Shown here in pieces: positions 3,291 through 25,364 of a stretch of 64,000 nt of DNA. The notes under the pieces were generated by a model. That model was given only the letters and a program-made list of their open reading frames with translations, made no database searches and was not told where the DNA came from. The DNA is taken from NCBI GenBank assembly GCA_964641255.1, contig CAZXMM010000001.1, positions 15,757-79,756 of the forward strand. The letters run 5' to 3'. The translations under genes were made by a program, and so were the position numbers. Position 1 is the stretch's first letter. Every line of letters begins with the position of its first letter. Source of the stretch: an uncultured Gammaproteobacteria bacterium. GTDB taxonomy: Bacteria; Patescibacteriota; Microgenomatia; JAMCZE01.

Positions 3291-3358
3291 GGGGGTGTAG
3301 TTTACGCAAAATTTTCAGCGCAAGTTGAAAGACGAAGGTTCGATCCCTTCCACCTCCA
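3291..3358 (+). other. tRNA-like 3' fragment: acceptor stem plus canonical T-arm, no recognisable D or anticodon arm
   Basis: GGGGGTG...GAAGG-TTCGATC-CCTTC-CACCTCCA. The 7-bp acceptor helix (one G-U pair) and the T-loop TTCGATC are canonical, but the middle 34 nt fold into no cloverleaf. Confidence 0.25.
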
Positions 3359-3360
3359 CT

Positions 3361-11201: not shown

Positions 11202-12203
11202 TCAGAAGTGGTAATCCATCTTCATGGCTTGCCGAACTTTTTCCAGAGTTTTTTGGGTTTCCAGGCGAGTTACCCTAGTGCCTTCTTTCAAAATATCTCT
11301 GACTTCATCAAGGTGAGTCTCGTAGTAGCTGCGGCGCTCTCTAATGGGATCAAGAAAAGTGTTCAACACTTTCGCCAGCTTGTCTTTAACTTCGACATCG
11401 CCGACCGTCCCCTTGCGGTAGCGGTCTTTGAGTTCCGCCACCTCCATAGCATCGGGATTAAAGATTTCGTGGTAAATAAAGACAGGGTTTCCTTCTACCC
11501 TGCCCGGGTCAGTAGGGTGGATGCGGTGGGGATCGGTGTACATTTTTTTGACTGTTTCCTTCACTTCTTGTTCGCTAGCGGAGAGCATGATGGTGTTACC
11601 CAGACTTTTGCCCATCTTGGGGTTGCCGTCGGTACCGATGAGTTTACCTATAGACCCCACAAGGGCCTCAGGCCTAACCAAAACTTCACCGTACAAGGAA
11701 TTAAACTTATCCACGATTTCTCGGGTTTGTTCGATATGCGCTACTTGGTCTTTGCCCACCGGGACCAAGTGGGCTCCCACACAGGTAATATCGGCCGCTT
11801 GAAAGATGGGATAATTGACAAATCCCAGAGAGAACTGTTCCCCTAGCCCTTTCATAACAATTTCATCTTTGACTGTAGGATTGCGCATAGCCCTGGCGTG
11901 GGACACGAGCATGGAATAAATTGCGGCTAGTTCATAGATTTCCGGGACTTGTGATTCGACAAAAATGTGCACTTTTTTGGGATCAAGACCCACCGCCAGA
12001 TTATCAATAGCAACCTCGAGTGTGGATTCACGAACTTTATCTGGGTACTCAGACAGGGTCGTAAAGGCGTGCAAATCAGCCAGGATAATAAACTCTTCAT
12101 ATTCATCTTGAAGTTTAACCCGATTTTCCAAAGTTCCCACAAAGTGCCCAACGTGCAATTTGCCCGTAGGGGTGTCGCCAGTGAGAATGCGCTTCTTATT
12201 CAT
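11202..12203 (-). CDS. trpS: tryptophan--tRNA ligase
   Basis: Class I HIGH motif (TGDTPTGKLHVGHFVG) and a KMSKS-like PKMGKSLGN. 333 aa is typical of TrpRS. The upstream T-box carries a UGG specifier. Confidence 0.85.
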   Translation of the reverse strand: MNKKRILTGDTPTGKLHVGHFVGTLENRVKLQDEYEEFIILADLHAFTTLSEYPDKVRESTLEVAIDNLAVGLDPKKVHIFVESQVPEIYELAAIYSMLVSHARAMRNPTVKDEIVMKGLGEQFSLGFVNYPIFQAADITCVGAHLVPVGKDQVAHIEQTREIVDKFNSLYGEVLVRPEALVGSIGKLIGTDGNPKMGKSLGNTIMLSASEQEVKETVKKMYTDPHRIHPTDPGRVEGNPVFIYHEIFNPDAMEVAELKDRYRKGTVGDVEVKDKLAKVLNTFLDPIRERRSYYETHLDEVRDILKEGTRVTRLETQKTLEKVRQAMKMDYHF

Positions 12204-12381
12204 AAAACCATTGTATAGCTAATTAACAAACAAAAAAGCCCTTGGAAAGTCTGAAAACTTCAAACTTTTCAAGGGCCCTCTCGGGGGTGCCACCCTCATC
12301 TGTCAATCCATACGGAATTGACCTTAATTATTTTCTCCCCTCCCCGGTTCCATCCCTCCGGATCAACAGGTTTATTAAGAC
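12204..12381 (-). promoter_or_regulatory. T-box riboswitch leader (Trp specifier UGG) upstream of trpS
   Basis: Minus-strand reading gives TTGCTA-N16-TATAAT (12415-12388), then a specifier hairpin CCGGAGGGAUGGAACCGG with UGG at 12352-12350, then the T-box AGGGUGGCACCCCCGAG (rc of 12288-12304). Confidence 0.6.
12232..12286 (-). terminator. intrinsic terminator of the T-box leader (13-bp stem plus U6)
   Basis: GCCCTTGAAAAGT...ACTTTCCAAGGGC followed by TTTTTTG on the minus strand, directly downstream of the T-box sequence. Confidence 0.6.
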
Positions 12382-12404
12382 GAAATTATTATACTAAAAC
12401 CTGC

Positions 12405-12740
12405 CTATTTAGCAATGAGGTGAAGAAACGAGCTAACTAGGGAGAGAACCAGACTAAAGGCCAGAGCCCACCAAAAATTGGCTACTGTAAATCCGGGAAC
12501 TACACTGCCAACCAGCCACACTACGGCTGCATTGATAACAAAAAGGAAGAGTCCCAGGGTTAAGACGGTGATCGGCAGCGTCAAAATGACTAAGATTGGC
12601 TTTAAAAAAACGTTAACTGCTCCTAAAACAACCGCCACAATAACAGCGGTCATAAAATCCGCCACCCGGACACCCGGAAGCACGTAGGCGGTAATAAACA
12701 CCGCTAGTCCTGACACCAGAAGATTAACAATTAATTTCAT
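12405..12740 (-). CDS. DUF360/YvlD-like 4-TM membrane protein (putative phage-holin-4 family)
   Basis: 111 aa with four hydrophobic helices, matching the holin-family-4 / DUF360 pattern. Confidence 0.45.
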   Translation of the reverse strand: MKLIVNLLVSGLAVFITAYVLPGVRVADFMTAVIVAVVLGAVNVFLKPILVILTLPITVLTLGLFLFVINAAVVWLVGSVVPGFTVANFWWALAFSLVLSLVSSFLHLIAK

Positions 12741-13600: not shown

Positions 13601-13865
13601 GTAAGTAGCATTATATCAACTGGTTGCAAACCGAGTCCAGATTCTAGATTGGCTCTAGGCTCTCACGATTAAATCCTCTCCCGTTTCGCTACGGGCGATT
13701 GACACTGAGCACAAAAAAAACTAAAATTGCTCATAGCAACGCGGGGTAGTGTAAAGTTGCATGTCAGGCTAGTAGAAGTGGGCCCTATGAGGAGTAATCT
13801 TCATAAGAAAATTTGGCTATATCGGTGGACAACCTCAATGTAAGTTGGGGTCAATACCGAGGGAA

Positions 13866-13885
13866 CCCAAGAAGACATTCTTGGG
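13866..13885. repeat. perfect inverted repeat CCCAAGAA-gaca-TTCTTGGG, candidate att/recombinase site
   Basis: 8-bp perfect arms with no adjacent U-run, about 70 bp from the serine recombinase stop. Confidence 0.45.
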
Positions 13886-13914
13886 ACTCCGTAGAGACTA
13901 AACGCCAAGCTCCC

Positions 13915-13929
13915 GCACTAAGTTAGTGC
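13915..13929. repeat. 15-bp perfect palindrome GCACTAAGTTAGTGC
   Basis: Seen directly, 24 bp downstream of the recombinase stop. Confidence 0.45.
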
Positions 13930-13952
13930 AGGATGATGATATAGTCCTACCC

Positions 13953-15725
13953 TTACAGTAATGTAAGAAGGTGCATAATCTGACGGTCCCAGTGCGATTC
14001 TGGGCCCCGCAACAAAGTAGGAACAGCCGAGACAAACTCGGCTGTTTTTGTTACATCGACGGTCTCCTCATTAGGTACAATCCTTTTCCCAATAATTGGA
14101 ACCTGCTTTTTCATCTCGACAATCTTTTCAAAGTAAAACGGACTGTCAAAATCAACTGTTTTATCTTGGAGGGTTAGGTGCAATCCACTTAACCCAATAA
14201 AGATATCGCGTTTGACTTTCGGATCAGTGGTTATGGCGAATGTCTTGCGAGCCTGGGCAGCAAAAGAAATAACTTTAACAGTTTCGTCATTGGCTTGGAT
14301 CATTCGCTCGTCAATGTTGCCGATTTGTTTTTCCACCACTTTAATTCCCGCTTCAAGTTCGAGCTTTCTTATTTTGAATTCCTCGTCACTTAACAAACTA
14401 CCATCAGTATTGGCTGGTGAGATCTTGAGAGCTACCAAGTTGTCTAGTCGCTTCCTAGAGTCATCGTAGGCTTTCTTAGTGGCATCGATAGTAGTCTCCC
14501 GAAACTGTTTCTCTTCCTCCTGCATTAAGCGAAGTTGGTCAATGGCCCATTCGAGAAAAAGGGGACTAAGCTCTATCTCTGCTAATCGCTGGTCAGTCTG
14601 CCGTTCCAATTCTTTGTCGCTGATGGAAAGCTCTTTGCAAAGTTTGCTTTTCTTGCGGCCACAACGGTTGTAAACGTAGTAGCGCATGGTCGGGTTAGTC
14701 ATGTCCTTAATGAAAGTGTCGCAGTGGGGACAATGATCTTGAACCTTTTTCGTGAGTTGAAATTTAGTCCGACAGTTAGTGCAGACTACTTGCCATTTTC
14801 CGTCTGTTACAACACCGGATGCACAAAAACCACACTTCATAGTGTGGGCATAGGTGTAGTTATGCTTGGTCTTGTACTGACTGACCTTCCCAAGTTTTAT
14901 TTGAACTTGCTCAAATACTTCAGGACTTATAGCCCGTTCAAGAGTAGGATTACTTTCAAACCAGTTGCCGCTTCCCACGGGATATTCAAACTTACCGCTA
15001 TAGAAAGGATTATTAAGAATCATATAAACTTCACTGAGGCAAAGTGGCCTTCCGCCAATCCTTTTCTTTTGTGGAGTAGTGAGGTGCCACTCTTCCTGGC
15101 TAAGCCGAAGGATTTCTGTTACCGGAGTGCCACTCAAAAAGAGCTCGAAGACTTTCTTTACAAACGGGAAGCGTTCCGGATCGAGGTATATCCGGCGTAG
15201 ACCACTCTCCGTGCCTTTGTCGTTAAGGTAACCTAGCGGCGCCCAGCCGGGCCGCCAGCCCTCTCGACATTTTTTCTCTAGTCCTCGTGAGACCACGATA
15301 CTCTTGTCATCACTATCCTTCTTAGAATTAGCAAACTCGACAGAAAGCATCCACTTGTCTTCCGGGGTATTTCGATAAATCCGGCTTGGTGTCCTGATTT
15401 CAATTAGCTTGCCCATATCCATAAGGTTAATGACGTCTCCTCCGTCTGACATGTTTCTTGCCAAGCGGTTGGCGTGCCAAGTGGCTATAGCATTAGCTTT
15501 ACCGGTGTCAATGAGGGAGAGCATTTCGCTAAATTTTTCTCTCTGTCGAGGTATGTGGGCAGATTTGCTTTCCTGAAGAATGTCGATTATTGTAAGTCCT
15601 TGTTTAGATTTTAAGCCCTCAAGAATAAAGAGTTGGTCCGGCAACGAAGCCGCCTGTCTTTCCTTATTATCTTCCGAGCTCTTTCGTGCGTAGCCAATAT
15701 ATTTTAGAGTAACTTGAGTGTCCAT
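13953..15725 (-). CDS. large serine recombinase (resolvase/invertase N-terminal domain, recombinase domain, zinc ribbon)
   Basis: YIGYARKSSEDN catalytic-Ser region, long recombinase domain, CGFC...CTNC...CPHC zinc ribbon, C-terminal coiled coil. ATG at 15725; the track ORF starts further upstream. Confidence 0.8.
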   Translation of the reverse strand: MDTQVTLKYIGYARKSSEDNKERQAASLPDQLFILEGLKSKQGLTIIDILQESKSAHIPRQREKFSEMLSLIDTGKANAIATWHANRLARNMSDGGDVINLMDMGKLIEIRTPSRIYRNTPEDKWMLSVEFANSKKDSDDKSIVVSRGLEKKCREGWRPGWAPLGYLNDKGTESGLRRIYLDPERFPFVKKVFELFLSGTPVTEILRLSQEEWHLTTPQKKRIGGRPLCLSEVYMILNNPFYSGKFEYPVGSGNWFESNPTLERAISPEVFEQVQIKLGKVSQYKTKHNYTYAHTMKCGFCASGVVTDGKWQVVCTNCRTKFQLTKKVQDHCPHCDTFIKDMTNPTMRYYVYNRCGRKKSKLCKELSISDKELERQTDQRLAEIELSPLFLEWAIDQLRLMQEEEKQFRETTIDATKKAYDDSRKRLDNLVALKISPANTDGSLLSDEEFKIRKLELEAGIKVVEKQIGNIDERMIQANDETVKVISFAAQARKTFAITTDPKVKRDIFIGLSGLHLTLQDKTVDFDSPFYFEKIVEMKKQVPIIGKRIVPNEETVDVTKTAEFVSAVPTLLRGPESHWDRQIMHLLTLL

Positions 15726-15843
15726 AATAATGCCCCCGCCGGTTGTAGTCAGAACGGTGAAGTCCTGTCCGACGAGGGCATTAAAAAACTCCACCGAAAG
15801 TTCTGACTACACTTTAATTATTTAGCTGTTCTTTATGATTGTC

Positions 15844-15996
15844 AAATTAAGATTTTTTACCATTACCATAGATTGCTTTAACAATCCAGATAAGCCTTCT
15901 TGAGTATTCGTGAGCTTCTTGTTCGGTCAATATGACTCCATATTCCTCGAAATACAGTTTCTTAAATTTCTCTATAGCTTGTTGAGACAATCGCAT
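15844..15996 (-). CDS. small hypothetical ORF (50 aa), not in the supplied track
   Basis: ATG lies 2 nt after the stop of the upstream gene. Translates MRLSQQAIEKFKKLYFEEYGVILTEQEAHEYSRRLIWIVKAIYGNGKKS. Confidence 0.25.
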
Positions 15997-15998
15997 GT

Positions 15999-16250
15999 CT
16001 AGCCCTCTTCCCTAAAAGCATCAAAAGCCAGCATTAAGTCTTCTTCGGTTTCATACCACCCATCGTTCCAGAAATCTGACATTTCTCCGTAGCTGTCTTC
16101 ATGCTTGCCATAGGAAATCCGCAGATAGACTTTTATTGGCCCATGTTGCCAATTTATCGTGCGTATAATTTTCAAAAAACGGCGCAAAGAACCTGTTCCG
16201 ACCCTAATGACCTCCACATCGTTTTTAATGATTTTTAGTATGTACTTCAT
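15999..16250 (-). CDS. hypothetical protein (83 aa)
   Basis: ORF overlaps the upstream gene by 4 nt, suggesting an operon. No family recognised. Confidence 0.4.
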   Translation of the reverse strand: MKYILKIIKNDVEVIRVGTGSLRRFLKIIRTINWQHGPIKVYLRISYGKHEDSYGEMSDFWNDGWYETEEDLMLAFDAFREEG

Positions 16251-16810
16251 GCCTTGTCGGTTGATTTACTACGATTTTTTCGTCTTCTTGGCTTTCGATG
16301 CCCGATTGCTGAAGTAAAATACTTCGCCGGATTTTCAAATGTTTTCCAACCTCCCGTAGAGCTTTTAAGCATTTCATTCAGAGTTCTATTAATTGCTCGG
16401 GGGTTGTGACGTTGGGCAATATATAACCAATGATTTGGCTTTTCGGGCCAAGGCCATTCCTTGAAGAGTTCACCTAACAGCGCGGCTACTTCCATAGGAG
16501 GGGTAAGGTAATTGCTATTTTTTAGTTTGCTGATAAGTGATAGCTTAGGCTCGGTAAACTCGAAGTTACCTTCTTGTTTACAAGTACCACTAACCAATCC
16601 ACTAACACTTCCATTCTCACTCTCAATCGCTGTGTTAATAGTTTCATAAGGTTTGCTCTTAACTGGGTGAGACTCGGCAATAGCCTCGCAAGCCAGAAGT
16701 TGATCTTCAATGGACAAGCCACAGTCGGGATCATAACGTGCCCCGTAGCTCTCGATTTTGCGGATCAATCTATTTTTGTAGGTATTCTCCCTATCCATAA
16801 GCAATAACAA
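16247..16810 (-). CDS. hypothetical protein with basic C-terminal tail (possibly DNA-binding)
   Basis: 187 aa ending GHRKPRRRKNRSKSTDKA. No family recognised. Confidence 0.4.
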   Translation of the reverse strand: MLLLMDRENTYKNRLIRKIESYGARYDPDCGLSIEDQLLACEAIAESHPVKSKPYETINTAIESENGSVSGLVSGTCKQEGNFEFTEPKLSLISKLKNSNYLTPPMEVAALLGELFKEWPWPEKPNHWLYIAQRHNPRAINRTLNEMLKSSTGGWKTFENPAKYFTSAIGHRKPRRRKNRSKSTDKA

Positions 16811-16856
16811 AAAACCTGCACCGTTGGGAGCCGATGCAGGTTTTGTCTCCCAACGA
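16809..16856. promoter_or_regulatory. two mutually exclusive 8-9-bp hairpins plus a U-run, immediately upstream of the 16810 start (attenuator-like or bidirectional terminator)
   Basis: AACCTGCA...TGCAGGTT with flanking A5/T5, and CGTTGGGAG...CTCCCAACG, sharing sequence. Seen directly. Confidence 0.4.
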
Positions 16857-17015
16857 TAGTTTTGGGATATCCTATCGAAGGAAGTAATTGGTAGGTACTA
16901 GATAATTGGGGTAAACCCCTTGGCTACATTTGCACTGTGCGAATTGTGCTCAGAGATCCTTTGTTAAATTCCAGGAATATCTTTCCATTATCTAGATGCG
17001 GGGACGACGTCCTTA

Positions 17016-17216
17016 TTGATATTATTTGCCAGTCTAGTACTAATCTCCATGACTATTCCACTCTTATCAGCACGAGAATACCGTTTGAAATATGGAATTA
17101 GAAAAAGTACTTTTTATGACAGAGTGAGGAAAAACAAAATTGTGGCTTTCAAAGTCTCGCCGAGAAAACTTTGGTTGTTGCCCCTGTCGTATCGCATTAG
17201 CAGCATAAGTTATTAG
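17016..17216 (+). CDS. excisionase/AlpA-like HTH (HTH_17) small DNA-binding protein
   Basis: LLSAREYRLKYGIRKSTFYDRVRKNKIVAFKVSPRKLWLL aligns with the Xis/AlpA pattern (L-s-e-a-l-gv-sr-T-y-w---G-lp--kig-r-w). The start codon is uncertain. Confidence 0.4.
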   Translation: MILFASLVLISMTIPLLSAREYRLKYGIRKSTFYDRVRKNKIVAFKVSPRKLWLLPLSYRISSISY

Positions 17217-17288
17217 GCCCGATCATGTCTGGACGTCAACTAATCTTTGGATGCCCTCCCCGCCTTGCGGTTGCTCCCGGTACCGGCT

Positions 17289-17501
17289 CTACCTAAAAAG
17301 TTCGCTTACGGAGATTCTTAATGCTTTAGCCAAACTAGATATTTTCTCAAGGGAGGGATTACGCTCGCCCCGTTCGATTGCACCCATGTAGCTTCTCTCA
17401 ATACCAGCAATATGAGCGAGTGCCTCTTGGCTTGGTCCCATCTGCTTTCTTAGTTTTCTGATATTTTCGCCGAAGTTTTTCTGGACTTTCGTATTGGCCA
17501 T
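17289..17501 (-). CDS. XRE-family (Cro/CI-like) HTH transcriptional regulator
   Basis: IRKLRKQMGPSQEALAHIAGIERSYMGAIERGERNPSLEKISSLAKAL is a canonical HTH_3 domain. ATG at 17501; the track ORF begins at a TTG at 17510. Confidence 0.75.
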   Translation of the reverse strand: MANTKVQKNFGENIRKLRKQMGPSQEALAHIAGIERSYMGAIERGERNPSLEKISSLAKALRISVSELFR

Positions 17502-17540
17502 ATTGACCAATTGTCGACACCAGTGCTACTATGAGTCCAC

Positions 17541-17566
17541 GTGATATATCACTCAGTAATGAGTGA
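17541..17566. promoter_or_regulatory. composite palindromic operator candidate between the XRE gene and the divergent operon
   Basis: GTGATATATCAC (12-bp perfect palindrome) overlapping TCACTCA-gtaa-TGAGTGA (7-bp arms). Confidence 0.45.
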
Positions 17567-17604
17567 TTAGCTCGTAACAGGGCTATCTTAGATGGAGATG
17601 TAAT

Positions 17605-17859
17605 ATGAAGAGGTATCTCACCGAAAGTGAGACCAACAAAGACCCGCTTCTTAGAACCCTTGCAAATGTGGAGCCGGTGGTGGGATGGATTGTCTACATC
17701 GGGATTGGTATTTATTTCATCCTCACTTGGAATTTCTATGTCACCGCCGTCACTTTCCTCATCTATACGTTTATCATTTCTCCTCTGCTTGTTGAATTTG
17801 TTTTAGACCGTTTGATGATGGCAATCTACTACTTAATTAGGGGGATGCCAAAAATATAA
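17605..17859 (+). CDS. hypothetical 2-TM membrane protein
   Basis: 84 aa. GGAG Shine-Dalgarno sits 8 nt upstream. The stop overlaps the next start (TAATG). Confidence 0.45.
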   Translation: MKRYLTESETNKDPLLRTLANVEPVVGWIVYIGIGIYFILTWNFYVTAVTFLIYTFIISPLLVEFVLDRLMMAIYYLIRGMPKI

Positions 17860-18479
17860 TGTTTGGCTTTTTTAAATCACCTAAAGACAGCTTTTATGAA
17901 CAATTGAAACGAGCGACGTATGAAGCCGCCATACTGGTCGACAAAAAGGATATAACAGGTAAAGAAAAAAACGTTTTGTACAGTATTATCGCAACCGGAG
18001 GATTATTCCCGACTATTTACTCACAGCCTCTCGATCTTGGTGATGGCAAATTATTAATAAGTGACGCAGATTTTGAATGTACGAGAGACAAAAAGCCCGG
18101 TGCTCTTTTACCAATTTTTTGTGTTTATTGCCTCTTTAACCTAATTGAAGTATCGAAAAACGATAAAGTCTTTGGGGCAAGATTTAACAAAATATTGCCG
18201 GGAGTGAAGACTGTCCTCTCCGAAGTAACGGATCTTGAACCAAAAGGTATTGACACTCTATTAGATCAACTCGAAGAGCGGGAAGGTGAGGATGGCATCG
18301 GGGCCGTTTATCCTCTCATGTACGCCCAGCCATTAGAGCTTATTTTTGGGTCTGACAGAGCAAAATCAATTCTCTTGGAATTATCTAAAAATCCTCTAGG
18401 TTCAACAGGCATTTCCTTGGCAATTCCATCAATGTTCATCGATTTCATCAAGGGTGTAAAGACGGAGCTTGCCGAATAG
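17859..18479 (+). CDS. hypothetical protein (206 aa)
   Basis: Translationally coupled to the upstream ORF. No family recognised. Confidence 0.45.
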   Translation: MFGFFKSPKDSFYEQLKRATYEAAILVDKKDITGKEKNVLYSIIATGGLFPTIYSQPLDLGDGKLLISDADFECTRDKKPGALLPIFCVYCLFNLIEVSKNDKVFGARFNKILPGVKTVLSEVTDLEPKGIDTLLDQLEEREGEDGIGAVYPLMYAQPLELIFGSDRAKSILLELSKNPLGSTGISLAIPSMFIDFIKGVKTELAE

Positions 18480-18574
18480 TTAGTCATGGTCATTCTCTGT
18501 CCAGCTTCGCAGCACTGCTTGTCCCAATAGCCATCCCCCCCCAACTCCCTAAATCTAGTTATAATAATCTCTCT

Positions 18575-19351
18575 ATGAAGTTGGGCGAACTAATCGAAAA
18601 AGTTACAATTCCATCAAAGCCGGTTAGAGTAATTATTCCTGTAAACGGTAAGCACAAGGCACTATTCTTTCTGGGAACAACAGCAGACGGGAGTCTTATG
18701 GTGGATCCTTCAATTGGATGCAGTTTCGATAATTGGCGGTATAGTTTTTGTACCGTTCCCAGGGGAAAAGTGCAAAATATAAGCGTCCCACTAGATCAAA
18801 AATCGATGATAGAATCCGGGAAAATTGGACCTAAAATTACTTATCATAAGAGTGGCTTTGTAAAGGTAGGTAAAACCAAGCTGTTGGAACCAGTTAGTAT
18901 TTGGGCAACCCCCCTGGATATTGCGTTTGGGCACCTGTTTACATATCAGGCTAAGGGTTTCCAGGGATTCAATTCTGTTACTACGCCCAATCCCAAATAC
19001 TCCGACATAATGCCAATAATACCAGCAGGATTAAAAACGCTAAAAATAGTTGCTCATGCGGGGAAATTGGAACACCTTATACCAACAATGGATCAAGTAA
19101 ATATATCGACACTTAGCAGACCAAATAGGATCTTTGAGAAGGACAATGGTAACTTGACAGAGATATCACTTTTCAAAATTAGCATAGCTTCGAGAGATAT
19201 CTGGATAAAATTAACGTATATTCCAAATTTTATCCTGACCCAGAACCCACAACCTAGCATAAATAGTTTGATTGGCTGGGATCAAGATAAAGCCGACGAT
19301 CTCAGAAAACCACTTAAGTTCGTAGCAATAGCAGCGGGGGGCGACTGGTAA
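18575..19351 (+). CDS. hypothetical protein (258 aa)
   Basis: TATAAT box upstream. Followed by conserved 3' motif copy 1. Confidence 0.45.
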   Translation: MKLGELIEKVTIPSKPVRVIIPVNGKHKALFFLGTTADGSLMVDPSIGCSFDNWRYSFCTVPRGKVQNISVPLDQKSMIESGKIGPKITYHKSGFVKVGKTKLLEPVSIWATPLDIAFGHLFTYQAKGFQGFNSVTTPNPKYSDIMPIIPAGLKTLKIVAHAGKLEHLIPTMDQVNISTLSRPNRIFEKDNGNLTEISLFKISIASRDIWIKLTYIPNFILTQNPQPSINSLIGWDQDKADDLRKPLKFVAIAAGGDW

Positions 19352-19388
19352 TTAATTCCCAAAACTAGATATTGGTATTTCGAGGAAC

Positions 19389-19430
19389 AAATTCCTGATT
19401 TCTTCCATTCCCCGCAACACAAAAATACTT
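19389..19430 (+). repeat. conserved 3'-cassette motif copy 1 (AAATTCCTGATTTCTTCCATTCCCCGCAACAC + A-run)
   Basis: One of four related copies, each 0-40 nt after a stop codon. Confidence 0.6.
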
Positions 19431-19438
19431 GGAGCATA

Positions 19439-19467
19439 AAGACGGTCCGTCTTCGTTTCTTCTTCTT
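19439..19467 (+). terminator. intrinsic terminator (GACGG-tc-CGTC plus T-rich tract)
   Basis: Hairpin followed by TTCGTTTCTTCTTCTT. A TGnTACAAT -10-like box follows at 19470-19478. Confidence 0.45.
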
Positions 19468-19484
19468 AATGCTACAATAGTAAC

Positions 19485-20141
19485 GTGCATACAAGAAAAG
19501 GGAATAGCTTAACTGTTATTCTGTTGGCAATTGCCATATCTTCAGTGGGAATAGTAAGCTACTTTTACTGGAAATCAGAAAATGTCCCCCCCGTCATTCA
19601 AATTCAAGAAAAAATAGTAAATCAAGACAACCCTTCGCAGAATAAATTATCAGAAAACTGGAAATTTCATTTTGACAACCGTCTTGCTTTCCAAGTTAAG
19701 ATTCCTCAAGATGCAGAAACTCAAGTTGTGCCCGCTGGCTTTGACAATGAGATGGGATTTGGTCCCGAGGGAATTTCCAGAATGGAATTCTCCAACAAAG
19801 ACTTTCTAATAAAGGTAGAACCCTCCACAAACAGGAGAAACGACCAAACTTTACAACAACTTGGTGAAACAAGAGAATTTAATGGCCTACCAGGTACTTC
19901 TCACCCAAGTCCTTGTTCAAAAGGTGCAGAGAAAGAAGAAATCCAGTTGCGCAGTGGAACTAAAGCATTTCTATGTGATAGCGTTCTTCCAAGCGGGCGA
20001 AAGTTTGGTATGGCCGCCACGATTTTAGGCAAAAAGTATTTTTACAACATAACAACAGGTAGTATTTATTCTCCAAACTTCACTGATAAAGAACAGGAAA
20101 TTTTTATGGAATTTCTTAACACCTTTCAGCCCACTGATTAG
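19485..20141 (+). CDS. hypothetical signal-anchored secreted protein (218 aa)
   Basis: GTG start at 19485. N-terminal TM helix LTVILLAIAISSVGIVSYFYW. Followed by motif copy 2. Confidence 0.45.
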   Translation: MHTRKGNSLTVILLAIAISSVGIVSYFYWKSENVPPVIQIQEKIVNQDNPSQNKLSENWKFHFDNRLAFQVKIPQDAETQVVPAGFDNEMGFGPEGISRMEFSNKDFLIKVEPSTNRRNDQTLQQLGETREFNGLPGTSHPSPCSKGAEKEEIQLRSGTKAFLCDSVLPSGRKFGMAATILGKKYFYNITTGSIYSPNFTDKEQEIFMEFLNTFQPTD

Positions 20142-20158
20142 TATGAGAGTTTTAGAAA

Positions 20159-20193
20159 CCAATTTCTGATTTCTTCCACTCCCCGCAACAAGG
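20159..20193 (+). repeat. conserved 3'-cassette motif copy 2 (CCAATTTCTGATTTCTTCCACTCCCCGCAACAAGG)
   Basis: Differs from copy 1 by a few substitutions. Confidence 0.6.
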
Positions 20194-20201
20194 AAATTCA
20201 A

Positions 20202-20229
20202 GCCGTATCAACGGCCTGTTTTATTTTTT
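20202..20229 (+). terminator. intrinsic terminator (GCCGT-atca-ACGGC plus TTTTATTTTTT)
   Basis: Hairpin and U-run seen directly. Confidence 0.55.
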
Positions 20230-20251
20230 CTGCCATGATACTATTATTTAC

Positions 20252-20497
20252 ATGAGTCTCTTTAAGAAAATCCTCCGTGTCATTACCATAGTGGTAGTAG
20301 CGTTTCTGCTAATAGGAGTTGCTTATTGGGGATTTAAAAGTGTTTTAGCAAGAGTTGCCCCAGAAAATAGCTTGGTTGATTGTCACTATTTTGATAATGA
20401 CTATGATGCGTGTAGTAAGCGACCAGACTGTTTACCAATCACAATTGGGGGAATTGGTAGCAGCCCAGCAGTTCATAGTTGTCAAACAAAGAAATAA
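20252..20497 (+). CDS. hypothetical small signal-anchored Cys-rich protein (81 aa)
   Basis: N-terminal TM helix. Four Cys in the C-terminal 35 aa (CHYFDNDYDACSKRPDC...HSC). Confidence 0.4.
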   Translation: MSLFKKILRVITIVVVAFLLIGVAYWGFKSVLARVAPENSLVDCHYFDNDYDACSKRPDCLPITIGGIGSSPAVHSCQTKK

Positions 20498-20537
20498 TTT
20501 CTGATTTCTTTCACTTTTCGCAACCAAAAAATCAGGA
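20494..20537 (+). repeat. conserved 3'-cassette motif copy 3 (AATAATTTCTGATTTCTTTCACTTTTCGCAACCAAAAAATCAGG)
   Basis: Overlaps the stop codon. CTGATTT...AAATCAG forms a 7-bp stem around the conserved loop. Confidence 0.6.
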
Positions 20538-20653
20538 GCGTGTAAACAGTCCGTTCGGTTATCCAAGATTATTGCTTCACATTTGTTTATTTCTAAACAA
20601 ACCTCGGACCAAACATTTGATACAATTGTGTTAGATAGTCTTGCGCTAAATAC

Positions 20654-21007
20654 ATGAGAAATAAAAAACTTGCAATCACTACCATAATAGTGGGAGGAAT
20701 AGAAGGTTTACTTGCGCTCTTCCTTTCCTCTTCTTTCCTACCAAAAATCATGCAAGTATACGAAGATTTTGGTGTGAATATCCCAATAACTACCAGCCTT
20801 ACCCCCTATATTTTTATATCCCCCGCCTTATTAAGCCTGATTGTGGGGACCTTAATTTTGACTTCCAAAAACAATAGCAAACGCTACAATTCCTGGGCAA
20901 TAATAATCCTGATAGCAACTCTAATTTTTATTTTTCTGGGTTTGCCCCTACTCTTCTCTGTAGGGTTCCTTTTTCCCATGTTCAACTTAGTAAACGTCAT
21001 AGAATAA
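20654..21007 (+). CDS. hypothetical 3-4-TM membrane protein (117 aa)
   Basis: TGaTACAAT box about 30 nt upstream. Followed by motif copy 4. Confidence 0.4.
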   Translation: MRNKKLAITTIIVGGIEGLLALFLSSSFLPKIMQVYEDFGVNIPITTSLTPYIFISPALLSLIVGTLILTSKNNSKRYNSWAIIILIATLIFIFLGLPLLFSVGFLFPMFNLVNVIE

Positions 21008-21045
21008 GTTCCCAAAGCATGAGAAATTCACTGCGAAAATCTACA

Positions 21046-21090
21046 ATAATTTCTGATTTTTTCTATTCCCGCAACCAAAAAAAAGGGGGG
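21046..21090 (+). repeat. conserved 3'-cassette motif copy 4 (AATAATTTCTGATTTTTTCTATTCCCGCAACCAAAAAAAAGGGGGG)
   Basis: Preceded by ATGAGAAAT at 21019-21028, a 10-mer also found at 20653-20662 around the 20654 start. May mark a truncated cassette. Confidence 0.55.
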
Positions 21091-21098
21091 CGACTTCT

Positions 21099-22721
21099 CT
21101 ATTCACACACTAAGTTTTTAGCATCAGCCTCTCCCAGATAAGCCATTATCTTGCCGTCACTTTGTAACACAGTATCAGTCACTTTAAGGCAGGGATACTT
21201 TTCGTCAACATCCCAAACATAAAGAGTTCCCACTTGGAGCTGACGCTCATCGATGTGGTCGAATCGGTAGGTCTCAAGAAGGTTGCCTCCAAAAGCATGA
21301 GCTCCATTCCGGGTTCCTCCTGAGGCCAAATATTTTTCCGGAGAATAGGCCGTATAAAAAAGTGTGTAAATGAGTGGTTCGTTAAGTCCCGGAGACACAA
21401 CCACAAAAGAATAGTTAGTCTTTTCTTGCTCCATTTTTTGCACTAGCTCTTTCATCCCGCTCCCCCAGATTTTGACTGCCGTAGTCGGTCCATGGAAAAA
21501 ATAGTTGTGGATGTACCAAAAACAACTAAGAACTAGTATCCCCCAAATAAGTACCCCTCCCCACTGTCTATAGCGCCAAGACTGTTGACACCACGAAAGG
21601 CACACCAAAACTCCGTAGCCGGCAAAGACTACTAAAGGAAAAGCCGCTAACAGAATGCGGCGATCAAAAACCGGTAGCGCGGTTAGGGCTCCAGGGATTA
21701 GGGCTACTACTAACCAGCCAAAAAGAAGCAAAAACTCTCTCTTTTGTCGACTCAAAGCAACTCCCCCGATGATGATCAGTGGGGCCATCCATAGATACAG
21801 CAATCTAACTTGGGGAATTTGATTATAAATACTTTGGCCAAAAAGGATGTCTGGACTTGATATTTTTAAAAATCCATTAATTACCGACTCGGCGGTAACA
21901 ATGCGCCGGTTGTGGAGTAGCCCTTGCAACAGATCGCCATTTTGTCGATCAAACTGCAGGGTAGCTAGTCCACTAAGCGCCGCCTGTTGATCAAAAAAAA
22001 TACTGACAGTGTAGGGTCGAGACGCCGCTTCATTTGTCCAAAGAGTTGAGAGTAAAAAGGGTAACGTACACACTGCCAATAAGCAGCTACTGATACTTAG
22101 GTGTTTCCAAAAAGCGAAACGCCAGACAAAAATGGTAAGAATGAGCCAGATGATTGGTACCCAAACTTTACTGGAATGGTAAGTGTAGAAATCCACTCCA
22201 AAAACGCCGGCCGCCAGAATAAAAAACAAGGGCTTTTTCCTCCCTAGTAAAAATAGCCAGACACCAAGAAGTGATAAGGAATAGGCCAGTCCAATTTCAA
22301 TTCCCACCCGAGAGTATTGCACTAGCCAAGGTAGAGCAGCCGTTAAAAAACCCACCAGCAGGGCCAGGCGTTTTCGTCTAAATAGTTCAAAACAAATACC
22401 TACACTTAAACCGATCGCAAGGACTCCAGCTAAAAGTGAAGGCAGTCTAACTGCCCACTCAGAAAGTCCCGCGACATAAACGAAAGGAATAAGGAGATAA
22501 ACGTAGATTGGATTTTTATAATCATCAAAAGAACGAAAGGCTAAGGGATAGGCTTGCCCAAACTCATCGCGACCGGTTTTTAAGAGCGAGTAAGCGTTGT
22601 AGCCTAGGGCCGCTTCGTCGGCACTGATACTGTTGGGTATCTTGGCTAAATTGTAGAGCCGCAGCAGTAAACCCAAAAAAAGAATCAATGAAAAAATTAT
22701 GGCGATAAGTCGATATTTCAT
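21099..22721 (-). CDS. GT39/ArnT-like membrane glycosyltransferase (GT-C fold)
   Basis: 540 aa and polytopic. First loop ADEAALGYNAYSLLKTGRDEFG is typical of the PMT/ArnT family. Confidence 0.75.
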   Translation of the reverse strand: MKYRLIAIIFSLILFLGLLLRLYNLAKIPNSISADEAALGYNAYSLLKTGRDEFGQAYPLAFRSFDDYKNPIYVYLLIPFVYVAGLSEWAVRLPSLLAGVLAIGLSVGICFELFRRKRLALLVGFLTAALPWLVQYSRVGIEIGLAYSLSLLGVWLFLLGRKKPLFFILAAGVFGVDFYTYHSSKVWVPIIWLILTIFVWRFAFWKHLSISSCLLAVCTLPFLLSTLWTNEAASRPYTVSIFFDQQAALSGLATLQFDRQNGDLLQGLLHNRRIVTAESVINGFLKISSPDILFGQSIYNQIPQVRLLYLWMAPLIIIGGVALSRQKREFLLLFGWLVVALIPGALTALPVFDRRILLAAFPLVVFAGYGVLVCLSWCQQSWRYRQWGGVLIWGILVLSCFWYIHNYFFHGPTTAVKIWGSGMKELVQKMEQEKTNYSFVVVSPGLNEPLIYTLFYTAYSPEKYLASGGTRNGAHAFGGNLLETYRFDHIDERQLQVGTLYVWDVDEKYPCLKVTDTVLQSDGKIMAYLGEADAKNLVCE

Positions 22722-22790
22722 CCTTTGAACTTATCGCAAATTATCTTTTTTTGCTACAATGAGGCACAAAGTAAGATTAGTCTGGAACAC

Positions 22791-22863
22791 GCCAGGGTAG
22801 CTCAGTGGTAGATGCGTGCGCTTCATAAGCGCAAGGTCGAGGGTCCGATCCCCTCCCCTGGTA
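22791..22863 (+). tRNA. tRNA-Met (anticodon CAU), somewhat degenerate
   Basis: Acceptor GCCAGGG/CCCTGGT with G1-U72 and A73. Anticodon stem TGCGC/GCGCA, loop TTCATAA. T-stem GAGGG/CCCTC. However, the D-stem has only 2 Watson-Crick pairs and the T-loop reads TCCGATC (C at position 55). Upstream promoter TTTGCTACAAT. Confidence 0.55.
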
Positions 22864-23205
22864 CTAAAAGAAAAGGTCTCGCCATTTTTGCCAGTTGGGC
22901 ACCATTGGTGGTGATACTTCCAAAGGAGGCAGCAAGAGCTCGTCAGGAACGATAATTATTTTTTCCCCTGCCCGAGCCAGCCCCAGTTCGTTTCTAGCTA
23001 CTAACTCCACGTAAGCCTCTGACCCTACCTGTTCCTTGCGTTTTATTAGTTCCTGCTGTTGTTTTTGGAGATTTGCCAACCGCTTCTGGCGCTCGATTAA
23101 TTTGTCCCCCGCGCTCCAAAAATCACCAAACGCCCGCACCGTAGTAAAGATCAGGTAAAACCCGATAACTATTACTACGATTCGTAAAATTCGGGACCGA
23201 TTCAT
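22864..23205 (-). CDS. FtsB/DivIC-like septum formation initiator
   Basis: 113 aa. N-terminal TM then a coiled coil (LANLQKQQQELIKRKEQ) and an ELVARNELGLARAGE motif, as in the FtsB/DivIC family. Confidence 0.55.
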   Translation of the reverse strand: MNRSRILRIVVIVIGFYLIFTTVRAFGDFWSAGDKLIERQKRLANLQKQQQELIKRKEQVGSEAYVELVARNELGLARAGEKIIIVPDELLLPPLEVSPPMVPNWQKWRDLFF

Positions 23206-23267
23206 AGTTTTAGCCTCTTCTATGCTTGTGCTTCGTCCTTTCTGGTGGTATTATAGGTTGATAACTT

Positions 23268-24113
23268 ATGGACGATAGTCTTACTCAGTTTGTAGATTAC
23301 CTCAAATCCGCGAAAAAAGCTTCTGCCACCATTATCGCGTATAAAAAGGATATCGACCAGCTTCTCGACTTTGTCAAAAAGCAAGGGCGTAGTACGATTG
23401 GTTCCGTAACCACTGAGGATTTAAATAGCTTTCTAGGGGTACTTCAGGCACAAAATTATACCCCCAAGTCGGTATCTCGCAAGATCAATTCGATTAAGAC
23501 CTTTTACCGTTTTCTTAGCCAAAACAAGCTCATTACTAACAACGTCGCCGCAGCTATTAACCACCCGAAGTTTGACACCAAGGCTCCGCGGATTCTCTCG
23601 CGGCTCGAATACCGCGCCCTGCGTGATGCCTCCCGAGACGATAGTCGCATCGCGGCCATCATCGAGCTCCTACTGCAAACTGGAATGCGAATTGGGGAAT
23701 TAGCAGCCCTGCGAGTAGGCTCGATTGGTGATCACTTTTTAAAGATCCCGCCAGTTGAGGGTCACGCCGAACGTGACGTTCCTCTCAACAAATCCGCCAA
23801 ACTGGCCCTAGATCGCTACCTCGCCTTACGACCCAACGTCGACTCTAACGCTCTCTTTATCACTAAAACCGGCCGCCCATTGTTAATTAGAAACATTCGC
23901 ACTGCTATCGACCGCTACTTTAAACTAGCGGGCATTGCCGGAGCTAAGGTCAACGATCTTAGGCACACCTTTATTGCCCACCACCTGGCGGCAGGCACCT
24001 CCCCAGTGCTCATTAGTAAGTTGGTTGGACACAAAAGAATCAGTACTACTGAAAAATATCTTGAGTTTATCAAGGACCTCCCCACGGAAAAAATGAAGCT
24101 GGAAGAGCTTTAA
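23268..24113 (+). CDS. tyrosine site-specific recombinase, XerC/XerD family
   Basis: SAM-like N-terminal domain. Catalytic R (GMRIGEL), HxxR (LRHTF) and GHKRISTTEKY (His/Tyr). Confidence 0.75.
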   Translation: MDDSLTQFVDYLKSAKKASATIIAYKKDIDQLLDFVKKQGRSTIGSVTTEDLNSFLGVLQAQNYTPKSVSRKINSIKTFYRFLSQNKLITNNVAAAINHPKFDTKAPRILSRLEYRALRDASRDDSRIAAIIELLLQTGMRIGELAALRVGSIGDHFLKIPPVEGHAERDVPLNKSAKLALDRYLALRPNVDSNALFITKTGRPLLIRNIRTAIDRYFKLAGIAGAKVNDLRHTFIAHHLAAGTSPVLISKLVGHKRISTTEKYLEFIKDLPTEKMKLEEL

Positions 24114-25135
24114 CTAGATTGTCGCCGTTTTAGATTAAAAATATATCGTCCAACCACATACAATAGTACCCCAGCAACTACAAATCTCATAAGTTCTGAC
24201 GACCAAGCTTTATCCGCTTCCCGCCTCAACCAGTCCCCACCGGCTTTATAAGTAGCCTCTAAGCCCTTCAAGATCGCCGCTCCCCAGGGGTGCGACCGAA
24301 CACTATCAACTACCCCCGACTGAGATGCCTGACTCTCTCTAGCCTGGGGTGAAGGCGTAGAGCTTCTGGTCGCAGTCACCGTAGAAACCCGAGTAGAAGT
24401 CCTGGTCGGTCTATTAGGAACCTGGCTGGCTGCCTCGGCCCGAGCAGTGGCACCGATTCCCCTGGCTTCCTGCGTGGCTCTCCCACTTGCAGCGGTCTGA
24501 GTAGCTCTTATCCTAGCCACTTGTAGATCTATTACAGCACGGGCTAGCTCCCCCGAATCAGGACTAACCCCTTCTACCTTCCCAAAACAAAGCTTGTAGT
24601 CTCGTAGCGCTAAACTTCCAGCTACTTGTTCGGTAGCTCCCACTGAAGAGACTGTGTGGCTAGTCAGCAGCGAAGGACTAGGGTGTCTGCTATCACCCCA
24701 CCCTCGCGGCATCTCGAGATTGGTTATTTCCAACCACCCCTTAGGACCACCAGGAGGGAGGTTTGTCCTGTCAAGCCGTTGAGCATACTTTAAAACCACC
24801 CCAGGGTTAGTAATTACGAGGTTTCCCCGTCCATCAAGCTGGGTAGTTGACCCAACTAACATGAGGTGGCCACTAACAACTGTTCCATCAAGCCAGCGTG
24901 TGGCAGTACCCCGAGCAAAAACTCTGGGCACCCCTTGGACTAGCTCGGCTGATAGTGGTCGTTGACCGTCGCCCAATGTTCGTCCCGCTGGTCGCCCCCT
25001 GACGCACCGCTCTAGTGGAATAGTAGTGCCAGGGGCAGCTGACGAAGGGATTGGATTCGTTTCTTTTAAGGAAGGAGCCGGGGCACAACTAGCAAAAGCT
25101 AATAATATAGTAGTGCCAACTAACCCAGCCCTCAT
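24110..25135 (-). CDS. hypothetical lipoprotein with low-complexity Ser/Thr/Ala/Arg-rich region and anomalously high GC
   Basis: Lipobox LAFASC and C-terminal hydrophobic helix. About 60% GC counted in the 100-nt window 24361-24460, against about 45% elsewhere. Start taken at an internal Met. Confidence 0.4.
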   Translation of the reverse strand: MRAGLVGTTILLAFASCAPAPSLKETNPIPSSAAPGTTIPLERCVRGRPAGRTLGDGQRPLSAELVQGVPRVFARGTATRWLDGTVVSGHLMLVGSTTQLDGRGNLVITNPGVVLKYAQRLDRTNLPPGGPKGWLEITNLEMPRGWGDSRHPSPSLLTSHTVSSVGATEQVAGSLALRDYKLCFGKVEGVSPDSGELARAVIDLQVARIRATQTAASGRATQEARGIGATARAEAASQVPNRPTRTSTRVSTVTATRSSTPSPQARESQASQSGVVDSVRSHPWGAAILKGLEATYKAGGDWLRREADKAWSSELMRFVVAGVLLYVVGRYIFNLKRRQSS

Positions 25136-25279
25136 TACTTTTTTCAAGCGAAACTGTTCTGTATTTCTTCCCATTGGGGCCAGATTATACCGCCGGCACA
25201 ATATAAAGGCAAAATAAAACACGTGGCTAGCTGGGCAAATTTCGGTGACCAGGGAAATAAATTGCTATAATTTAGCATC

Positions 25280-25351
25280 AGGATCCGTCGTTCAACGGTT
25301 AGGACATGACTCTTATAAAGTCATTACAATGGTTCGACTCCATTCGGATCC
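25280..25351 (+). tRNA. tRNA-Ile (anticodon UAU)
   Basis: Clean cloverleaf: acceptor GGATCCG/CGGATCC plus A73, D-stem GTTC/GGAC, anticodon stem TGACT/AGTCA, loop CTTATAA (T34 A35 T36), T-arm AATGG-TTCGACT-CCATT. Extended -10 promoter TTGCTATAAT about 10 nt upstream. Confidence 0.7.
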
Positions 25352-25364
25352 ACTAGATTTGGGG

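Follow-up and report, generated by a model that had tools for sequence, protein, structure and literature searches.

Introduction

T-box riboswitches are a model case of one structured RNA reading another. Four classes are recognised, the first two (I and II) controlling transcription and the other two (III and IV) mostly translation, and binding of the tRNA is augmented by a platform at the distal end of Stem I, by the S-turn motif of Stem II, or by both (PMC10482949). The short Stem I's of Class III require Stem II for function (PMC10482949). The platform has been described as essential in transcriptional T-boxes for kinetic reasons, since the decision is made while the polymerase moves, and truncated Stem I's hardly bind tRNA without Stem II (PMC7583486). 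The element considered here is the leader of trpS, the gene for tryptophan--tRNA ligase, on the minus strand of a 64,000-nucleotide stretch of contig CAZXMM010000001.1 (positions 15,757 to 79,756); this whole stretch is called the window below, and coordinates refer to it. The leader has neither a platform nor a Stem II, and judging from its sequence and that of its relatives it is very probably a functional tRNA-Trp-responsive T-box transcription attenuator of trpS, with a minimal architecture, in a bacterium of the candidate phyla radiation (CPR). An earlier note on this DNA had proposed that a T-box with UGG as its specifier controls trpS through termination and antitermination, and this is supported by the folds, the identity of trpS, homologous leaders, covariation in Stem I and the tRNA-Trp of a relative.

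Of the described systems, Class II, as known from glyQS of Bacillus subtilis, shares with this leader the terminator output, a single-stranded linker replacing the Stem II domain, and the order of K-turn, Stem I, linker, Stem III and a discriminator with a 7-nt bulge (PMC10482949). The glyQS type, however, has a long, platform-bearing Stem I and is specific for glycine, whereas Stem I in the window is short, lacks the platform and carries UGG (PMC10482949). Class III, represented by actinobacterial ileS (Nocardia farcinica, Mycobacterium tuberculosis), has a similarly short and platform-free Stem I with the specifier in its apical loop (PMC10482949; PMC7583486), and its Stem II and Stem IIA/B are also seen in longer leaders from other CPR bacteria (loci L001, L164, L093 and L130). 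Class III differs in needing Stem II and the pseudoknot, in mostly sequestering the Shine-Dalgarno sequence and so acting on translation, in its loop of 5-6 nt and in its occurrence in Actinobacteria. The element in the window, by contrast, does without Stem II and IIA/B and combines a loop of 10 nt with a K-turn and an intrinsic terminator, in a host from the CPR. The Class I T-boxes of trpS (Bacillus; L035, L052 and others from Chloroflexota) have the gene, the (GAA-)UGG-A motif, the bulge UGGCACC and the terminator logic in common with it, but the Chloroflexota leaders extend over about 260 nt, reach 75-94 bits with the Rfam T-box model RF00230 and possess a full Stem I, Stem II and IIA/B, compared with about 150 nt and no RF00230 match for the leader in the window.

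The element in the window thus joins a Class III-like Stem I to a Class II-like linker and a terminator, is Trp-specific, and fits none of the four classes; the long CPR forms are Class III-like but of the terminator type. A trpS T-box with UGG is ordinary in itself. What is not ordinary is the host phylum, the invisibility of the element to the standard model, and the conservation of a minimal architecture against the stated rule. A limited literature search found no work linking T-boxes with Patescibacteria, the candidate phyla radiation or Saccharibacteria, and the TBDB paper is silent on them.

Architecture of the trpS leader

The leader and its gene comprise the following features, all read on the minus strand.

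12388..12415, minus strand: putative sigma-70-like promoter (-35 TTGCTA at 12415-12410, 16-nt spacer, -10 TATAAT at 12393-12388)
12339..12370, minus strand: ultrashort Stem I with a basal K-turn, in a motif order common to L089, L001 and L130
12352-12350, minus strand: specifier UGG (Trp), with the conserved purine A at 12349, in the apical loop of Stem I
12323..12338, minus strand: purine/A-rich single-stranded linker of 16 nt, GGAGAAAAUAAUUAAG, replacing Stem II and the Stem IIA/B pseudoknot
12302..12322, minus strand: Stem III, GUCAAUUC / CGUAU / GGAUUGAC, with UAAG before it and AGAU, then helix A1, after it
12271..12297, minus strand: antiterminator (T-box discriminator core), GAGGG[UGGCACC]CCC-GAGA-GGG-CCCUU
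12232..12276, minus strand: intrinsic terminator from minimum free energy (MFE) folds, with its stem at 12276-12238 and U6 at 12237-12232
11202..12203, minus strand: trpS, tryptophan--tRNA ligase, 333 aa (TIGR00233, 258 bits against a cut-off of 177)

The promoter-like site, which the earlier note had also reported, is present with 10 of 12 matches in a consensus scan and takes in the stop codon of the gene before it, which is holin-like (111 aa, PF04020, ending at 12405 in the minus-strand reading). An equivalent TGnTATAAT is found at the same distance in the related locus L089, and transcription of the trpS leader would begin near 12381. The leader measures about 180 nt from promoter to ATG and about 150 nt from the start to the U-run. 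It had been called short before, with a minimal Stem I, and short it is, but that description understates the reduction, as Stem II and Stem IIA/B are missing too.

On its 5' side, Stem I consists of CC (12370-12369), the bulge UGUU followed by GA and U (12368-12362), and CCGG (12361-12358), and on its 3' side of CCGG (12347-12344), GGA (12343-12341) and GG (12340-12339). The specifier hairpin, UCCGG/CCGGG, occupies 12362-12343 and closes a 10-nt apical loop, AGGGAUGGAA (12357-12348), and it is in this loop that the UGG followed by A of the earlier note is found, at 12352-12349. In the register of the loop, UGG takes positions 6-8 and a purine position 9 in the window as well as in L089, L093, L001 and L164. 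The distal helix, the AG bulge and the distal loop are all absent, the stem ending in the apical loop 5 bp above the K-turn; because Stem I stops just above the specifier, the platform for the tRNA elbow is missing. The pattern CC-UGUU-GA-U...G-GA-GG fits, as a sequence pattern only, the K-turn consensus gC-gaU-GA-a...g-GA-Gc with one extra base in the bulge, and L001 has such an extra base likewise. In RF00230, the columns for the K-turn and the lower part of Stem I are matched with high posterior probability by both L001 and L130. Stem III, folded in isolation, has an energy of -8.0 kcal/mol (z=-2.8), and its flanks are similar to the Rfam consensus AAGuG-StemIII-AAaUa-GGGUGG.

Antiterminator, terminator and tRNA match

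Within the discriminator, helix A1 pairs GAGGG (12297-12293) with CCCUU (12275-12271), the 7-nt bulge UGGCACC spans 12292-12286, and helix A2 pairs CCC (12285-12283) with GGG (12278-12276) across the loop GAGA (12282-12279); the T-box sequence, AGGGUGGCACC, is at 12296-12286. When segment 12299-12271 is folded alone, it adopts exactly this shape of A1, 7-nt bulge and A2, at -8.4 kcal/mol. The terminator reads GCCCUUG-A-AAAGUUUGAA-GUU-UUCAGACUUU-C-CAAGGGC, then U6. Its U6 was described correctly in the earlier note, but the stem comprises 17 pairs, 7 and 10 on either side of an A.C mismatch, and not 13 bp, a count reached only by including G-U and A-U pairs with the U-tract.

The segment GCCCUU (12276-12271) is common to the 3' strand of the antiterminator and the 5' arm of the terminator. 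An overlap of the T-box with the terminator 5' arm had been claimed and is real, but the shared part is the antiterminator 3' strand (GGG-CCCUU), not the T-box 14-mer. Folding of the alternatives, a check that had been proposed for this site, gave two mutually exclusive folds which, with Stem I and Stem III constrained, lie at -22.6 kcal/mol for the ON conformer and -36.0 kcal/mol for the OFF conformer. The terminator is favoured by 13.4 kcal/mol, and the default state is therefore OFF, as in T-box logic. The overlapping arrangement of antiterminator and terminator is found in all relatives compared, and long terminators with U-runs are also present in L001, L164, L089 and L093. Between the last U of the terminator and the ATG of trpS (12203) there are 28 nt, one more than the 27 given earlier, which leaves no space for another promoter, so that expression of trpS must pass through the switch. 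A consensus terminator scanner reported no terminator at the trpS leader, because the stem exceeds its pattern length and is interrupted.

The antiterminator geometry, searched as 5 bp, UGGNACC, 3 bp, loop and closing strands, occurs at one site only in the window. With 0.25 chance occurrences expected per random 64-kb window (both strands), the geometry alone is unconvincing, and the case for a T-box rests on its position within a leader of about 180 nt on the correct strand, on the overlap with the terminator, on conservation in relatives, and on the match of codon and gene. Other matches to GGTGGNACC in the window are not T-boxes, that at 55465 lying within a PBP gene and that at 25373 beside a tRNA.

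The same chance figure lends something to the idea of an attenuator that is independent of tRNA and is instead governed by a leader peptide or by an RNA-binding protein similar to TRAP or to a repressor, its likeness to a T-box being coincidental. A 9-codon open reading frame (ORF) does exist in the leader (AUG at 12353, MEPGRGENN), and a gene of the Trp-repressor family is found in the trpS operon of one relative. Coincidence, however, sits poorly with the co-occurrence and conservation of the T-box core, the K-turn and the specifier, and with the end-to-end alignment of relatives to RF00230 by Rfam; no candidate protein-binding repeats were seen, and we regard such an attenuator as hardly credible. 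The leader-peptide mechanism in particular was rejected, as no Trp codon occurs in the mini-ORF and L089 has UUG in place of its AUG.

The tRNA-Trp encoded at the related locus L093 agrees with a T-box that responds to tRNA-Trp. It has the anticodon CCA, complementary to the specifier UGG, and an acceptor stem AGGCGAG/CUCGCCU followed by the discriminator base G, so that its GCCA end is complementary to UGGC of the bulge; the bulge of L093 is UGGCACC, identical to that of the window. No tRNA-Trp was found in the 44 other loci examined. In L093, this tRNA-Trp(CCA) gene (695-772) lies inside the operon led by the T-box, in the order T-box, 133-aa ORF, tRNA-Trp, racemase-like gene and trpS. Because of this placement, the L093 riboswitch may control the synthesis of its own ligand.

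Related leaders in other CPR bacteria

Around 170 trpS loci, taken from genomes and metagenomes, were compared. A scan limited to 450 nt upstream of trpS missed the operon-leading T-boxes of L088-90 and L093, which were recovered by a scan of whole loci for the antiterminator geometry, and the latter brought to light five other CPR leaders related to that of the window (L088-90, L001, L164, L093 and L130).

The short form seen in the window recurs in L088, L089 and L090, which are one sequence from three metagenomes, with a TrpS 69% identical to that of the window and a leader heading a racemase-trpS operon. The two leaders are related by nhmmer (E=3.1e-7 in 944 kb) over aligned positions 12-159, which is the whole leader. 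Stem I of L089 reads CC-AUUGAU-CCAG[AAGGUUGGAA]CUGG-GGA-GG, its linker of 15 nt (AUUGUAAUAAAUAAG) is in the same place as that of the window, and a hairpin of unrelated sequence stands at the position of Stem III. The discriminator, CGAGG[UGGCACC]GUC...GGC-CCUUG, is followed by a long terminator with U6.

The long form, in L001 (Woesebacteria), L164 and L093, shares the short Stem I but carries an extra block of about 90-100 nt before Stem III. In L001 and L164 this block aligns to Stem II and Stem IIA/B of RF00230, with a GAA/AGUA S-turn in L001, while L093 has no RF00230 match at E<=1 and its Stem II was assigned by eye. Scores with RF00230 are below threshold, at 34.2 bits for L001 (E=2.8e-4), 22 bits for L164 and 35.7 bits for L130 (E=4.5e-5). 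The alignments of L001 and L164 span model positions 1 to 219, with 72-95 distal Stem I positions deleted.

A further variant, in L130 (2823-3030) and L131 (1405-1610), lies directly downstream of trpS and is a T-box with a K-turn and an ultrashort Stem I closed by the hexaloop CUGACA. It reads CC-UAUGAU-GCGG[CUGACA]CCGC-UGA-GG, has 74 model positions deleted, and in L130 includes Stem II and Stem IIA/B. The gene behind it begins with an OB-fold anticodon-binding domain of class IIb synthetases, and the codon in the loop is GAC, for Asp, followed by A; on these sequence features the gene is probably aspS.

To measure the conservation of Stem I, the window, L089 and L001 were aligned without gaps and by sequence alone. 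All 21 of 21 cells are paired (100%) and four of the five hairpin pairs are changed on both sides, a result matched by 11 of 500 shuffles, and the score of 0.857 compares with at most 0.381 in slid registers. L130 adds the pair of strands GCGG/CCGC to this comparison. MAFFT was unable to align the Stem I of L130, or the CPR with the Chloroflexota antiterminators, and both were compared by hand.

The 5+3-bp geometry of the antiterminator is intact, in a structure-based register, in 10 of 10 trpS leaders despite substitutions. Several discriminator pairs are changed on both sides in the resulting table of 10 leaders, although a table of this kind is biased towards the structure on which it was built. 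The A2 pair beside the bulge, a G-U wobble in the consensus, is C-G in the window and G-C or A-U in the nine other leaders. A covariance model made from the four other CPR discriminators ranks the site in the window first among all positions on both strands.

Arguments against a T-box and competing folds

A number of observations weigh against the interpretation of this leader as a tRNA-Trp-responsive T-box. RF00230 matches nothing in the window at its gathering score of 93 bits and nothing at E<=10 when 12150-12480 is searched alone, and L089 has no match at E<=1. This silence is explained by the deletion of the distal Stem I and Stem II columns and not by mismatches in the core. The earlier note had named two findings that together would speak against a T-box; one of them, the score below threshold, is what was obtained, yet an antiterminator exclusive of the terminator does form and is conserved. 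The covariance model that ranks the site first, made without the window, scores it at just 14.5 bits (E about 0.19), and independent sequences of the short form number two only, the window and L088-90.

Covariation in the discriminator was not significant in the MAFFT alignment, with 66 of 500 shuffles as good and a +1 slide equal, because the pairing register of the helices is shifted by a single base. In the window, the conserved string GGCCCUUG is read with an offset of one base, as GGG-CCCUU where the others have GGC-CCUUG. Simple compensatory changes in A1 and A2 between the window and L001/L164 were rejected on the same shuffles, the difference being this one-base register slide instead. 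As to the tRNA, there is no tRNA-Trp gene within the window, and the comparison therefore uses that of L093; the pairing of NCCA with the bulge, which the earlier note had wished to see checked, holds with the tRNA of this relative, that of the host being outside the window. Published work demands either Stem II or the platform (PMC7583486, PMC10482949), and for this reason the function of the element is not self-evident.

The thermodynamics of the 5' half are also unfavourable in the window. The nearest-neighbour energy of Stem I is -5.6 kcal/mol against -10.7 kcal/mol for a local competitor, and a long-range helix of 12369-12346 with 12323-12300 is favoured at -22.4 kcal/mol, energies of a kind that exclude the tertiary energy of the K-turn. 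These competing folds are favoured in the window but not in L089, and are not conserved.

The long-range helix, being the thermodynamic optimum of the 5' half (z=-2.5), invites a different assignment, in which a second UGG (12310-12308, GUA-UGG-A), which like the first is followed by A, would be the specifier, Stem I would be this long irregular helix, and there would be no separate Stem III. The codon, however, is base-paired in that fold, and the pairing is impossible in L089, whose own MFE fold consists of the proposed Stem I with K-turn and Stem III. The assignment would further destroy the K-turn common to L089, L001 and L130 and the hairpin 4 nt before A1, where Stem III belongs, and the covariation favours the short hairpin. 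We consider the second UGG a very unlikely specifier, and the short Stem I with UGG in its apical loop is retained below.

Patchy distribution and the possibility of decay

The trpS gene of most CPR relatives has no such leader and directly follows a racemase-like, YbaK-like or other gene. Among close TrpS homologues, the loci of P0002, P0006, P0007, P0008, P0013, P0014, P0017, P0026, P0030 and P0032 are without a T-box, and only P0009 (L164) has one. At locus L161 the genes follow the order seen in the window (an ORF of 195 aa, the holin-like gene, trpS, the tRNA-binding protein and FtsH) and TrpS is 79% identical, but there is no T-box, an unrelated spacer of 585 nt being found in its place. 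The leader has thus been gained or lost on a short evolutionary scale.

Such patchiness, with no T-box in L161 and many others, would also be expected if the leader were a decayed relic, with Stem II and IIA/B deleted, no binding of tRNA, and a leaky constitutive terminator that merely sets a low basal level of trpS. The window does lack the 90-100 nt or so that L001, L164 and L093 possess, and the short Stem I's of the literature are in need of Stem II. On the other hand, the same short form is preserved in L088-90, at 69% identity of TrpS and with homology along the whole leader, the changes in Stem I are compensatory, and the UGG-A loop, the K-turn, the bulge and the helices are all intact. 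A useless terminator of 45 nt before an essential single gene would, moreover, be expected to erode. Decay is on balance an improbable explanation, though less far-fetched than the other alternatives considered here, and a functional attenuator remains the preferred one.

Many CPR relatives have an operon that ends in trpS and includes a gene of the Asp/Glu-racemase family (L172, 525-779; L089, 777-1481; L093, 772-1491; L168, 296-1488), and sometimes also a YbaK-like editing domain, which in some is fused to TrpS. The trpS operon of L172 also includes a protein of the Trp-repressor family (PF01371). This variety suggests several alternative modes of trpS regulation in the CPR group.

Outside this group, the Spirochaete loci L024, L025, L026 and L139 have a conserved GAUGAGGAUGGAACCCCUUUGGC...AAGGGAUCU with UGGAACC, about 60-75 nt upstream of trpS and near the start codon. 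It may be a T-box-like leader that has diverged and perhaps acts on translation, or it may be something different.

Proposed mechanism and significance

The motifs, the two exclusive folds and their energies, the homology and covariation among CPR leaders and the complementarity to the tRNA-Trp of a relative are direct observations, and from these we infer that the leader binds tRNA, senses its charging and holds it without a platform or Stem II. After a start near 12381, the nascent leader would form the K-turn-based hairpin of 5 bp and offer UGG-A in the apical loop to the CCA anticodon of tRNA-Trp. If the bound tRNA-Trp is uncharged, its 3' GCCA would pair with UGGC of the bulge and stabilise the weak antiterminator, so that the polymerase reads into trpS. 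With the tRNA charged or absent, the more stable terminator would take the shared GCCCUU strand and transcription would stop at U6. How the tRNA is held can only be guessed at, with the codon-anticodon and NCCA contacts and stacking on the helices of Stem III and A1 as candidates, perhaps aided by the A-rich linker or by a K-turn-binding protein.

Whether the window and L088-90 represent a distinct, working fifth architecture of T-box, consisting of K-turn, apical-loop specifier, A-rich strand in place of Stem II, Stem III, canonical discriminator and terminator, is in our estimation an evenly balanced question. Such an architecture would decide co-transcriptionally by the anticodon and NCCA contacts alone, or with a helper in the form of A-minor contacts from the linker or a K-turn-binding protein. 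If true, and taken together with the long forms on trpS and the aspS-like gene, it would mean that reduced T-boxes of the terminator type form a separate lineage in CPR bacteria, one missed by standard covariance models. A conserved terminator-type T-box without platform or Stem II would be a natural minimal system of about 150 nt, showing how little RNA suffices for recognition of a tRNA and sensing of its charging. Surveys based on the Rfam model under-count T-boxes in the candidate phyla radiation, whose gene regulation is little known.

Host and neighbouring features

The closest relatives of TrpS are metagenomic, and the named ones are Patescibacteria, with a Woesebacteria metagenome-assembled genome at 75%, followed by Parcubacteria, WWE3 and Levybacteria. 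Downstream of trpS on the same strand are a NUDIX protein (Pfam), a protein with a tRNA-binding domain and FtsH, the last of which matches Patescibacteria and Gottesmanbacteria at 61-75%. The host is a Microgenomates-like Patescibacteria/CPR bacterium and not a Firmicute. The earlier note had called T-boxes characteristic of Firmicutes and a few other phyla and hence taxonomically informative, which is misleading for this DNA; the T-box instead extends the known range of T-boxes, which are unusable as a marker of Firmicutes or Actinobacteria.

Elsewhere in the window, a tRNA gene at 13740-14012 (plus strand) is split by a group I intron at 13761-13968 (RF00028, 77 bits). Its 5' half reads GCGGGGUAGUG... 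and its 3' half ...GGUCCCAGUGCGAUUCUGGGCCCCGCA, the isotype depending on the exact splice sites. An ORF for a serine recombinase (13953-15794, minus strand) shares its end with part of the 3' exon. An atypical tRNA is found at 3291-3359 (plus strand), with 40.9 bits for the Rfam tRNA model and a two-base anticodon called as 'tRNA-???' by ARAGORN; its D-arm is reduced and its anticodon loop reads GCGCAAG (perhaps GCA for Cys, with C33), and it overlaps the start of an ORF at 3325. The region 13953-27737 has the serine recombinase beside the intron-bearing tRNA and a dip in GC content at 16-20 kb, and at its other end a gene for a TraD-like coupling protein (25365-27737) abuts tRNA-Ile(UAU) at 25281-25353. 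This region may be an integrated mobile element bounded by tRNA genes.

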